This document shows positions 3,415-4,339 of a DNA stretch of 9,831 bases, in pieces. The position numbers and the translations under genes were made by a program. Under the pieces are notes generated by a model. That model did not search any database and was not told the origin of the DNA. It was given only the letters and a program-made list of their open reading frames with translations. Source of the stretch: a virus. Taxonomy: Duplodnaviria > Heunggongvirae > Uroviricota > Caudoviricetes. Numbering within the stretch: position 1 is the first letter of the stretch; each line of letters begins with the position of its first letter. The stretch is taken from IMG/VR virus record IMGVR_UViG_2645727901_000016; one strand, 5' to 3'.

Positions 3415-3478
3415 ATTACCTTTCTGGTGAAAAAATCAATGATTATTACCGTTATGGTAACTTTACCTTTATGGTAAT
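3415..3478. promoter_or_regulatory. OR-like operator cluster with divergent promoters: three copies of the palindrome
   Basis: Sites: 3415-3431 ATTACC-tttct-GGTGAA (imperfect), 3445-3461 ATTACC-gttat-GGTAAC, and 3462-3478 TTTACC-tttat-GGTAAT, the last two directly abutting. They lie in the 155-bp AT-rich gap between the Cro-like and CI-like starts. Candidate promoter elements overlap them (TTGATT -35 and TAATAAT-type -10 on the minus strand; TACAAT at 3522-3527 on the plus strand). Confidence 0.65.
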
Positions 3479-3531
3479 ATTCATTTAAATTTAGTCAGTT
3501 AGGTAACATTAAATGGACAAATACAATAGCT

Positions 3532-4128
3532 ATGAAAAGTATTTATGACATAAGACGCAAAAACCTTAACGAAATCATTCGCCGGGATTTCGATGACACC
3601 CAGTTGCGCTTTGCAGAGCGGGTGAAGCGTTCGCAGAACCTGGTCAACCGGTGGTGCACTGGCATCAAAAACATCGGGCCGAATGCCGCGCGTATCATTG
3701 AAGAAGCGGCGCGCAAAGAAAAGTTCTGGCTTGATGTCGATCACGAACTGGACGCAGTACAGGCTGATATCTTTATTCCGGCCACTGAAGATGGCGAATG
3801 GACTGTAGAGAAGCAGGCCGCAGCCACGCTCAATGCCTGGATGAGAAAGAACACGGAAATGACATCCGAAAAGAAAGTTGCTGTTGCAGCTGGTATTGGC
3901 CCGGCCACAGTTAACCGGATTATGAAAGCGGAAGTCAGCACGACCATCGGTGTTCTTTCCTCCCTGGCGCGCGCGTTCGGGCATGAAGCATACGAGATGA
4001 TTATTCCCGTCGGCGCTCCTGGTGTTATCGACTACGACCACCGGATGTATGCAGCTCTGCCACAGGAAGAGAAGAACAAGATCACCTCATTCATCAACTT
4101 CGTGTTTGAGCAGAACAAAAGCAAGTAA
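3532..4128 (+). CDS. CI-like prophage repressor with two tandem HTH (XRE-type) motifs and no recognisable S24 peptidase domain
   Basis: 198-aa ORF lying between the OR-like and OL-like operator clusters and transcribed toward OL, as cI is in lambda. HTH-like segments at roughly residues 10-55 (LRFAERVKRSQNLVNRWCTG) and 110-150 (VAVAAGIGPATVNRIMKAE...LSSLARAFG). No Shine-Dalgarno upstream of the ATG. Confidence 0.6.
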   Translation: MKSIYDIRRKNLNEIIRRDFDDTQLRFAERVKRSQNLVNRWCTGIKNIGPNAARIIEEAARKEKFWLDVDHELDAVQADIFIPATEDGEWTVEKQAAATLNAWMRKNTEMTSEKKVAVAAGIGPATVNRIMKAEVSTTIGVLSSLARAFGHEAYEMIIPVGAPGVIDYDHRMYAALPQEEKNKITSFINFVFEQNKSK

Positions 4129-4185
4129 TCCCCCGCCATTCTGACGCTTTACCTGCCCGATGGCGGTAAGCTCGCGCCTCACGCA

Positions 4186-4339
4186 ATTACCAAAATGGTA
4201 ATTTTTTCTCGTCATACCTATTGACACAATCACTTTTTGATCTGATTATTACCCAAAAGGTAATACAGGAGCGCGTCGCTCAGGCAGAAACCACCACTTC
4301 GTGGCTTTCCTGCATCTTCAAGTATTACCAAAATGGTAA
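4186..4339. promoter_or_regulatory. OL-like region: three perfect 17-bp operators plus a plus-strand promoter with consensus -35
   Basis: Operators at 4186-4202 (ATTACCAAAATGGTAAT), 4248-4264 (ATTACCCAAAAGGTAAT) and 4323-4339 (ATTACCAAAATGGTAAT). TTGACA at 4221-4226, then a 17-bp spacer, then GATTAT at 4244-4249 overlapping the middle operator. Confidence 0.7.

Follow-up and report, generated by a model that had tools for sequence, protein, structure and literature searches.

Which repressor acts on the palindromic sites that flank a 198-aa helix-turn-helix gene in this virus DNA, and is their layout that of the lambda switch? A preliminary description of the window (the whole stretch of DNA analysed, 9,831 nucleotides) had proposed a lambda-like, bipartite immunity switch with a CI-like repressor. 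Our analysis points with high confidence to another assignment. The window is very probably the early-control region of an epsilon15/SPC32H-like (Uetakevirus) prophage, and its 17-bp palindromes would be operators of the repressor Rep, relieved by the antirepressor Ant. This switch is already known, and most of its sites are already annotated in the type phage epsilon15. That the sites exist, how they are conserved and spaced and which protein is encoded were computed, whereas the tetrameric state of Rep, its binding to palindromes and the roles of Ant and LexA were taken from the literature.

Palindromic sites and the repressor gene

Scanning of the whole window for ATTACC-N5-GGTAAT yielded four perfect copies (1268-1284, 4186-4202, 4248-4264 and 4324-4340), the number given in the preliminary description. 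The chance rarity claimed there was also borne out: no perfect copy is expected, and none was found in 200 dinucleotide-preserving shuffles. With up to two mismatches allowed, eight copies were counted against 0.22 expected, a number reached by no shuffle. The imperfect copies are located at 3445-3461 and 3462-3478, each with one mismatch, and at 3415-3431 and 3073-3089, each with two. A ninth site at 1205-1222 has a 6-nt spacer and lies outside the N5 pattern. The same two families were returned independently by a repeat finder, with spacings of 30 and 17 bp in the family 5' of the 198-aa gene and of 62 and 76 bp in the one 3' of it. According to the ORF table all nine sites are intergenic, and the four gaps that carry them (1203-1323, 2995-3142, 3377-3531 and 4129-4352) together make up about 6.6% of the window.

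The 198-aa gene (3532-4128, plus strand) is rep. A homology search of its product, as recommended earlier, matched a characterised phage repressor: 195 of the 198 residues (98.5%) are those of SPC32H Rep ('Repressor', PDB 5D50 chain A) over the full length (E 6e-129). Exactly this sequence is present in 185 blocks of the assembly collection. Pfam reported solely helix-turn-helix families (HTH_3/HTH_31 at residues 104-150, also HTH_26), and an S24 peptidase domain was absent from the Pfam and PDB sequence matches. PMC9986798 names three domains of Rep: an N-terminal helix-turn-helix for DNA binding, an HTH_3-like domain for dimerisation in the middle, and one at the C-terminus for tetramerisation and Ant binding. 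The C-terminal half of the 198-aa protein corresponds to the dimerisation/tetramerisation region of SPC32H Rep, and the presumed recognition helix NLVNRW is invariant across the compared Reps. Binding of Rep to palindromic sites as a tetramer, and weak binding by the dimer, are described in PMC9638917.

Agreement with the epsilon15 group extends to the DNA. Positions 3006-4516 share 94.5-95.8% identity with epsilon15, SPC32H and SPN1S (genus Uetakevirus), and the window has essentially the same Rep-Ant switch as these phages (Rep structures PDB 5D4Z and 5D50), with the same palindrome at the same positions. In the GenBank record of epsilon15, seven perfect palindromes carry the label protein_bind 'repressor / lysogeny', and four of these equal the window sites at 1268, 4186, 4248 and 4324. 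Gene order was compared, by ORF table and family matches, with the annotated regions of epsilon15, SPC32H, BUCT711, Tyrion and phiV10. Homologues of gp40 and gp39 are divergent from rep, and 3' of it come a homologue of gp37, genes for recombination and one that is AlpA-like; DnaT-like and RecT genes also match as neighbours. Prophages with an identical Rep adjoin guaA, as do epsilon15 and phiV10 (PMC9782041). Flanking cargo genes are mosaic: where the window has a metallophosphatase, epsilon15 encodes a cytosine methylase, and where the window has a DUF3799 nuclease and a 330-aa protein, epsilon15 encodes a lambda-Exo-like nuclease.

The core TTACC-N5-GGTAA was found at syntenic positions despite Rep identities of 64% (BUCT711), 45% (Tyrion) and 42% (phiV10). 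This motif also occurs in prophages of Scandinavium, Superficieibacter and Erwinia. Altogether, the palindromes are almost certainly the Rep operators of an epsilon15/SPC32H-like prophage.

Probable operators and promoters on both sides of rep and at a third locus

Upstream of rep, the proposed OR-like cluster was recovered in the gap that separates the repressor gene from a small, divergently oriented helix-turn-helix gene; it has two abutting sites plus a third, weaker one. The site nearest to rep, TTTACCTTTATGGTAAT (3462-3478), has one mismatch and abuts ATTACCGTTATGGTAAC (3445-3461), which also has one mismatch and is perfect in SPC32H. The former is the best conserved of the sites 5' of rep and probably overlaps the putative rep promoter. 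Two candidates for this promoter, TTTACC (3462-3467) with TTAAAT (3485-3490) and a near-leaderless TACAAT (3522-3527), were considered; they were not called by the promoter scan and are not conserved genus-wide. The scan did call a promoter-like site on the minus strand (3412-3439), with TTGATT (3439-3434), a 16-nt spacer and AATAAT (3417-3412), agreeing with the consensus at 9 of 12 positions. All six aligned phages share AAAAATCAA unchanged in its -35 region. The weak operator ATTACCTTTCTGGTGAA (3415-3431, two mismatches; pattern scan and repeat finder) occupies the spacer and the -10 of this promoter, and 3445-3461 lies 5 bp 5' of its -35.

Across loci scored at a core threshold of at most one mismatch, a counterpart of 3415-3431 stands roughly at -109 to -111 relative to the start of rep in many relatives, some of them phages with a Rep identity of 42-47%; most loci of the Klebsiella clade are without a site there at this threshold. 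In sequence the imperfect sites 5' of rep do not differ from their epsilon15 counterparts, and they are kept in phages with a Rep of just 42-65% identity. These putative imperfect operators are conserved yet unannotated, and are a modest addition of the present analysis. A further weak site, ATTACCAGAAAGGTGTT (3073-3089, two mismatches), stands alone in the gap that separates the gp40-like gene from the gp39-like gene. A syntenic site is found in each of the five reference phages, and many other loci have one about 448 bp upstream of rep.

The promoter-like site belongs to a 77-aa helix-turn-helix gene (3143-3376, minus strand), the homologue of epsilon15 gp39 and SPC32H_042, which occupies the Cro position and heads a minus-strand operon containing the replication gene. 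It could be asked if the palindromes are also, or mainly, sites of this protein, competing with Rep for them as Cro competes with CI in lambda. In line with such a role are its position, its predicted helix-turn-helix, a match to PHROG_35 'transcriptional repressor' (E 4e-11) and fold matches. The single-sequence AlphaFold2 model is all-helical (pLDDT 75), and Foldseek placed it mostly with XRE/Cro-type helix-turn-helix proteins including YdaS, 434 repressor and 434 Cro. Furthermore, it is more conserved in the genus (65-97% identity) than Rep (43-98%), which parallels the conserved operator sequence. However, these fold matches are weak (E at least 0.13), no match to Pfam, NCBIfam or PDB sequences was obtained, no annotation or experimental support was found, and in PMC9638917 the citing authors assign palindrome binding to Rep. 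Altogether we consider such a role possible but rather unlikely. As an additional binder the 77-aa protein is plausible, as the sole binder very unlikely.

Downstream of rep the proposed second cluster over a strong promoter is supported by the promoter scan. The promoter (4221-4249, plus strand) consists of TTGACA (4221-4226), a 17-nt spacer and GATTAT (4244-4249) and agrees with the consensus at 10 of 12 positions, and TATTGAC does not vary among six phages. One perfect operator (4186-4202), annotated as 'repressor' in epsilon15 and kept in all relatives, lies 18 bp 5' of the -35. The next (4248-4264) is centred 62 bp from it and overlaps the -10 at 4244-4249, as had been stated for the middle site. 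The first two sites and the distance of 62 bp thus stand as given in the preliminary description; the third is located at 4324-4340 instead of 4323-4339, so the second distance is 76 bp and not 75 bp. This third perfect site is located in the transcript leader, right in front of the ribosome-binding site for the 49-aa gene (4353-4502, plus strand). It is common to the epsilon15 group and one relative of 52% identity (L096, there 80 bp from the preceding site). Its equivalent is absent in Tyrion and phiV10 and is a spacer-4 variant in Klebsiella phage BUCT711. The 49-aa gene, a homologue of epsilon15 gp37 by synteny and family match (PHROG_898, E 4e-31), is the first of the plus-strand operon and is followed by genes for the 330-aa protein, the DUF3799 nuclease and RecT, the AlpA-like gene and others. 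A terminator of rep within 4120-4200 was ruled out for the window, where the RNA is not more stably folded than shuffled sequence (z = -0.77); a classical terminator does follow rep in Tyrion and phiV10.

The fourth perfect copy, ATTACCTTTTTGGTAAT (1268-1284; pattern scan and shuffles), is real, but it belongs to a third control region which the preliminary description had not placed. It sits between the DnaT-like replication gene and a RuvC-like gene (738-1202, minus strand), is kept in all relatives, and its equivalent in epsilon15 is annotated as protein_bind 'repressor'. Its partner in this far pair (1205-1284) is the degenerate promoter-proximal site TTTACC-CCCCCA-GGTAAT (1205-1222), immediately 5' of the RuvC-like gene and recognised by alignment. 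Because of a run of seven C the spacer has 6 nt, and the site was therefore missed by the N5 pattern. At this position all five reference phages align with a normal N5 site, 62 bp from the distal one. The spacer-6 form occurs in the window only, among 92 loci, and a contig of 99.9% identity (L017) has eight C. A poly-C expansion is predicted to break this operator in the present prophage, which distinguishes it from epsilon15, SPC32H and SPN1S.

A candidate promoter of the RuvC-like operon (1221-1249, minus strand) consists of TTGAAA (1249-1244), a 17-nt spacer and TTGAAT (1226-1221), the -10 overlapping the proximal site. It was recognised from the sequence and its conservation in the alignment; the promoter scan made no call. 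The geometry is that of the promoter 3' of rep: operator, 18 nt, -35, 17 nt, and a -10 overlapping the second operator. Ahead of this pair and 3' of the replication gene lies a putative terminator-like element on the minus strand (1296-1315; GCGC-AGTA-GCGC, A, T7), whose stem and T-run are invariant and whose loop is variable in six phages. It was not called by the terminator scan because its 4-bp stem is below the threshold of the tool.

Comparison with the lambda switch and probable induction by Ant

The resemblance to lambda is one of layout. As in OL-cI-OR, operators and a promoter, the repressor gene, further operators, a divergent small helix-turn-helix gene and replication genes follow each other, and the repressor gene is co-oriented with the recombination operon. 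The 17-bp operators have two-fold symmetry and overlap -10 and -35 elements, and in the epsilon15 group three sites are found on each side. Between the repressor gene and the small gene promoters would diverge; the minus-strand promoter was called and is overlapped by 3415-3431, that of rep is putative, and the Cro-likeness of the small gene consists of the PHROG match and the weak fold matches. The gene order of the preliminary description stands, but the type of repressor and the limitation to two regions do not.

A true lambda-type switch, with CI-like dimers at adjacent operators in OL and OR only and RecA-stimulated self-cleavage, is highly improbable. At the level of domain content it is refuted by the lack of the S24 peptidase domain in a protein with helix-turn-helix domains only. 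The nearly identical SPC32H Rep is described, in PMC7380047 and PMC9638917, as a tetramer inactivated by Ant and not by cleavage. The functional unit described is a tetramer with two DNA-binding pairs, in contrast to the cooperating dimers of lambda. Distances of 62 and 76 bp downstream and of 30 and 17 bp upstream differ from the adjacent sites of lambda. Given a repressor described as tetrameric, the earlier remark that the wide downstream spacing may imply another geometry of cooperativity is to the point. Neither is the switch bipartite. The window contains the third pair and the weak site 3073-3089, and further perfect sites occur at three more loci in the complete genomes of SPC32H and epsilon15, 5' of terminase, head and ant/tailspike genes. 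At least six promoter regions across the phage genome carry epsilon15-type operators. Not every operator locus is a pair: for the SPC32H sites close to terminase, head and ant no 62-bp partners were found, and these sites are single.

Least credible, to a degree that can practically be neglected, are palindromes that are not operators (a dispersed host repeat, RNA hairpins or terminators, or recombination sites): although the inverted repeats could form 6-bp hairpins and the phiV10 equivalent of 3073-3089 lies under an annotated putative rho-independent terminator, the stems are short and AT-rich, the half-sites are fixed while the 5-nt centre is free to vary, the sites lie 5' of or over promoters and away from gene ends at conserved positions relative to -35 and -10 elements, the RNA fold after rep is like that of shuffled sequence, and the guaA/guaB host flank of one locus (L007) contains no Rep-type site.

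The Rep operators assumed here would be relieved by Ant. In SPC32H, ant is encoded about 14 kb from rep, hence outside the window. The presence of ant or a LexA box inside the window was rejected: three matches to CTGT-N8-ACAG with one mismatch were found there against 3.6 expected, which is chance level. Since ant and its LexA box lie outside, Ant-dependent induction of this prophage is deduced from relatives. Among 78 ant loci, 78 occurrences of a Rep-type site were counted 83-88 bp upstream, in nearly all loci, and 75 of the 78 have a perfect LexA box 36-41 bp 5' of ant. Contigs with a Rep 100% identical to that of the window encode an Ant 100% identical to SPC32H Ant. Co-evolution of the Rep C-terminus with Ant was considered and rejected, because Ant is 86-88% identical in contigs taken to be those of Tyrion and TL-2011b, phages with a Rep of 42-45% identity. 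Kim and Ryu (2013) reportedly described SPC32H Ant as structurally distinct from Tum-type antirepressors.

According to PMC9638917, tetrameric Ant splits Rep into dimers, and Ant is produced after LexA cleavage (PMC7380047). A LexA-controlled antirepressor is the induction route described for Rep-type phages, unlike lambda. In the present prophage a small LexA-repressed Ant, encoded beside the tailspike gene, would remove Rep from the DNA, and induction would proceed without RecA-stimulated self-cleavage of Rep. The same logic of an uncleavable repressor and a small SOS-induced antirepressor is known from coliphage 186 (CI/Tum), Gifsy and Fels-2, likened here by their description in PMC7380047.

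Operator pairs and their possible meaning

Rep could recognise the TTACC half-site by its N-terminal helix-turn-helix domain and would then shut at least three promoters of the window. Repression at 4221-4249 would turn off the recombination operon, at 3412-3439 the Cro-position gene and the replication genes, and at about 1221-1249 the RuvC-like operon; this allocation of sites to promoters we infer from their positions. At both outer promoters two operators stand 62 bp apart, the first 5' of the -35 and the second over the -10 (at 1205-1284 the 62 bp is nominal, as the extra spacer base moves the centre by about half a base). At the promoter 5' of rep a 30-bp operator pair brackets the -35. 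Since Rep is reported as a tetramer with two DNA-binding pairs, we infer that a single tetramer may bridge each pair and wrap the promoter in a tight loop. The spacing suggests such bridging as a proposal, against which it counts that a protein-bridged loop of 62 bp would be tight.

A comparable case is Rco of the Bacillus subtilis plasmid pLS20. PMC9986798 states that the C-terminal domain of Rep shares the fold of the TetDloop tetramerisation domain of Rco, that the N-terminal helix-turn-helix domains are homologous in sequence, and that Rco forms DNA loops between regions separated by about 75 bp. The operators of the window, spaced by 62-76 bp, come close to this distance. Rco is also controlled by an antirepressor protein (Rap), as Rep is by Ant. 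In contrast, Rco belongs to another host phylum and to a conjugation operon instead of a phage, Rep has an additional middle dimerisation domain, and looping is demonstrated for Rco only.

In 92 loci neighbouring sites keep to discrete distances (17 bp in 85 cases, 30 bp in 49, 62 bp in 118, 63 bp in 53 and 76 bp in 40). A genus-wide clamp is a tentative and doubtful extension of these results: pairs 62-63 bp apart (about six helical turns) would be gripped by one tetramer on both sides of the -35, with one operator/antirepressor specificity for all. Two unrelated promoters have the first operator 18 nt 5' of the -35 and the second over the -10, and Ant is 85-100% identical while Rep diverges to 42%. 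As the half-site, NLVNRW and Ant are constant despite the divergence of Rep, the genus would share one such specificity. If true, there would be a single immunity specificity in the genus, unlike the diversifying immunity of lambdoid phages. The fixed clamp geometry may be undescribed so far; a full-text literature search found no description of Uetakevirus repressor operator geometry, and searching for the half-site words together with repressor returned unrelated papers only.

The repressor, the operators and the induction route of this common epsilon15-like prophage type have been characterised before, thus there is no new biology to claim. Possibly useful for work on Rep are the unannotated imperfect operators and the genus-wide pair geometry. 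The paired geometry of 62-63 bp offers a concrete DNA target for the "trans" binding model of the tetramer, and it also bears on the looping role proposed for the C-terminal tetramerisation domain of Rep.

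Palindrome copies and gene layout

The reading of the palindrome ATTACC-N5-GGTAAT as basis of a lambda-like bipartite immunity switch is partly supported. Four perfect copies were detected in the window by pattern scan, one at 1268-1284, far from the gene rep of the 198-aa repressor Rep, and three downstream of rep (4186-4202, 4248-4264 and 4324-4340). No perfect copy occurred in 200 dinucleotide-preserving shuffles of the window, and eight copies with at most two mismatches were found versus 0.22 expected. Thus, the copies are real and beyond chance, as the preliminary description had stated. 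Upstream of rep, the scan identified two abutting sites with one mismatch (3445-3461 and 3462-3478) and one site with two mismatches (3415-3431). Another two-mismatch site (3073-3089) lies between genes resembling those of the epsilon15 early proteins gp40 and gp39. The same site families were recovered by a repeat finder, spaced 30 and 17 bp apart before the 198-aa gene and 62 and 76 bp apart after it. Downstream, the first two positions and the 62 bp spacing had been described correctly; the third site had been placed one base off and its spacing given as 75 bp. All sites are located within four non-coding gaps, together about 6.6% of the window (ORF table).

The strong promoter proposed at the middle downstream site was called by the promoter scan on the plus strand (TTGACA at 4221, 17-nt spacer, GATTAT to 4249; 10/12 positions), and its -10 overlaps 4248-4264. 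For rep itself, a promoter was sought and not located, and no obvious Shine-Dalgarno sequence was seen. A 30-nt imperfect inverted repeat (3431-3492, 77% complementary, centred at 3461/3462) has the two abutting operators as its core and reaches the -35 of a minus-strand promoter and the mirror position on the rep side. Just past the rep stop, the half-sites TTACC-TGCCCGATGGC-GGTAA are separated by 11 nt (4149-4169), an arrangement kept in the epsilon15 group only. These half-sites pair in the predicted RNA fold, whose stability does not exceed that of shuffled sequence (z = -0.77). At this position, a classical terminator is present instead in Tyrion and phiV10.

As in lambda, operators and a strong promoter lie downstream of the repressor gene, which is co-directional with a recombination operon (49-aa gene, 330-aa protein, DUF3799 nuclease, RecT, AlpA-like). 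A second operator cluster lies between rep and a divergent 77-aa gene (3143-3376, minus strand), followed by a DnaT-like replication gene. The lambda-like switch of the preliminary description stands for prophage-repressor operators and gene order; in repressor family, induction route and number of control regions the window differs from lambda. Compared with epsilon15 and BUCT711, the genes flanking the conserved control region form a mosaic at 2129-2803 and 4499-6619. A calcineurin-like phosphoesterase takes the place of the epsilon15 cytosine methylase, and the Glu/Lys/Ala-rich 330-aa protein (PHROG_1376) and the DUF3799 PD-(D/E)XK nuclease replace the lambda-Exo-like nuclease of epsilon15. 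In E. coli, the top matches span 64-65% of the window with 91.5-94% identity. Matches to the control region were obtained in nine E. coli genomes, and in six of these they extend over most of the region.

The 77-aa protein matched PHROG_35 "transcriptional repressor" (E 4e-11). Its AlphaFold2 model (single-sequence, pLDDT 75) is all-helical and gave weak fold hits (E >= 0.13), most of them to XRE/Cro-type HTH proteins such as YdaS, 434 repressor and 434 Cro. The designation "Cro-like" is therefore reasonable but unproven. This protein may also use the same operators, with a fairly low probability. The adjoining gene in all relatives encodes, in the window, a 64-aa Cys/His-containing protein (2800-2994, minus strand; CRNGH...CVEC), a homologue of epsilon15 gp40 in PHROG_1081 (unknown function) that also weakly matches a PHROG of endonuclease VII.

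Hairpins, terminators or a dispersed host repeat, the last named beforehand as a refuting case, were considered as other origins of the palindromes. Against these origins, the half-sites are fixed around a variable centre, the positions are locked to promoters, the RNA fold is unremarkable and the motif is absent from the host sequence flanking a prophage locus.

Repressor identity and induction

The protein described as CI-like belongs to another family. The 198-aa ORF at 3532-4128 shares 195/198 residues with the "Repressor" chain of PDB 5D50 from Salmonella phage SPC32H, and the three differences are all conservative. A genuine self-cleaving CI-type repressor is excluded by the domain content, as Pfam matched HTH domains only and no S24 peptidase in Rep. 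At the DNA level, 3006-4516 is 94.5-95.8% identical to epsilon15, SPC32H, SPN1S and related Salmonella podoviruses of the genus Uetakevirus. One IMG/VR contig (L017) shares 8.1 kb with the window at 99.9% identity. The exact Rep sequence occurs in 185 blocks of the assembly collection, and among the places listed these prophages adjoin guaA and guaB; the guaA/guaB region is the reported attachment locus of epsilon15 and phiV10 (PMC9782041).

The epsilon15 record (AY150271.2) carries protein_bind features "repressor / lysogeny" on the exact counterparts of 1268, 4186, 4248 and 4324, and three more elsewhere in the genome. The palindrome as prophage-repressor operator is thus existing annotation for the type phage, and the Rep-operator system is already known and largely annotated. 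As described in PMC9638917, Rep is in dimer-tetramer equilibrium and binds palindromic DNA as tetramer, each DNA-binding pair being made by subunits from different dimers, and is split to dimers by the antirepressor Ant, itself a tetramer. PMC9986798 divides Rep into three domains, the first for DNA binding, the middle one for dimerisation and the C-terminal one for tetramerisation and also for binding of Ant.

According to PMC7380047, Ant is made after LexA cleavage. The window contains no ant gene, and LexA-box-like matches are at chance level only. In related contigs, 78 ant loci contained 78 Rep-type sites, practically one each, with their centres 83-88 bp upstream of ant, and 75 of these loci had a perfect LexA box 36-41 bp upstream. 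Rep may therefore also act on the divergent ant/tailspike region. Ant is 85-100% identical across contigs (L105-L184; L006 19676-20028), and contigs with a Rep 100% identical to that of the window encode an Ant 100% identical to SPC32H Ant. Since, in addition, Rep differs from SPC32H Rep only conservatively, we infer that Ant-dependent, LexA-gated induction is to be expected for the window prophage.

Control regions beyond rep

Contrary to the preliminary description, the switch is not bipartite. The site 1268-1284 is part of a third control region, located in the gap that separates the DnaT-like gene from the RuvC-like gene, and all five reference phages (epsilon15, SPC32H, BUCT711, Tyrion, phiV10) have two sites 62 bp apart there (alignment A3). 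In the window, the proximal site (1205-1222) reads TTTACC-CCCCCA-GGTAAT, its C7 run (1210-1216) lengthening the spacer to 6 nt, a form unique among 92 loci. L017 has C8, and the other 90 related loci have a normal 5-nt spacer (CCTCA or similar). The C-run is either a homopolymer sequencing error or real slippage inactivating the operator in this lineage. The adjacent -10 is TTGAAT in the window versus TTAAAT in L017 and epsilon15. A minimal terminator-like element, GCGC-AGTA-GCGC, A, T7 (1296-1315, minus strand), lies 3' of the DnaT-like gene; its stem, below the 5-bp threshold of the scan tool, and its T-run are invariant in six phages, and its loop varies.

The weak single site 3073-3089 is kept in position in 5/5 reference phages and recurs in many other relatives. 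Perfect sites also precede the small terminase gene and the head genes in the complete SPC32H genome and occupy the gap between ant and tailspike gene; they are counterparts of the other three epsilon15 annotations. Judged from these positions together with the window regions, Rep seems to repress most transcription units throughout the genome. Integration host factor sites are annotated in epsilon15 at the equivalent of 3489-3511, which separates the operators from the rep start, and next to both the far operator region and the ant-proximal operator. They could matter for DNA bending around Rep sites.

Conservation and promoter geometry

The comparison set comprised five annotated phages, 80 IMG/VR loci and 11 genome loci. 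The core TTACC-N5-GGTAA is found at syntenic positions despite Rep identities of 64% (Klebsiella phages), 52% (Scandinavium), 47% (Superficieibacter, Erwinia), 45% (Tyrion) and 42% (phiV10). The N-terminal domain is the best-conserved part of Rep (54% identity versus 16-47% elsewhere in the most distant pairs), and its stretch NLVNRW, presumably the recognition helix, is invariant, which fits the constancy of the operator core. The sites upstream of rep have no annotation in the epsilon15 record, yet are kept in 6/6 aligned phages (A1), as is the minus-strand -35 TTGATT between two of them; the middle site is degenerate in Tyrion and phiV10, falling under the two-mismatch cut-off. Distances between adjacent sites are sharply quantised at 17 (85 times), 30 (49), 62 (118), 63 (53) and 76 bp (40), counts that are not independent as many of the 92 loci are close relatives. 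The 62-63 bp spacing is kept in the divergent clades, too (Klebsiella, Scandinavium, Superficieibacter, Erwinia, Tyrion, phiV10). The third downstream site (4324-4340) occurs mainly in the epsilon15 group and also in a 52%-identity relative (L096).

The promoter downstream of rep and the candidate promoter of the RuvC-like operon (about 1221-1249) have unrelated sequences and a common geometry: operator, 18 nt, -35, 17 nt, and a -10 overlapping a second operator. Upstream of rep, 3445-3461 and 3415-3431, 30 bp apart, bracket the minus-strand -35. As 62-63 bp correspond to about six helical turns and 30 bp to about three, paired sites lie on the same helix face. From the tetramer with two DNA-binding pairs we infer that one Rep tetramer could bridge each operator pair and enclose the -35 region. 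Such bridging would also account for occupancy of the weak site 3415-3431. PMC9986798 states that the structural mechanism of Rep repression "has not been extensively characterized". The paper supports bridging by analogy, as it reports the same fold for the C-terminal domains of Rep and of the plasmid pLS20 protein Rco, and Rco forms DNA loops between regions separated by about 75 bp. The sites near the SPC32H terminase, head and ant genes are single and the third downstream site is patchy, thus operator pairing is not universal. The conserved clamp geometry, together with an operator, a recognition helix and an Ant that stay constant throughout the genus, is potentially the sole new element of this system.
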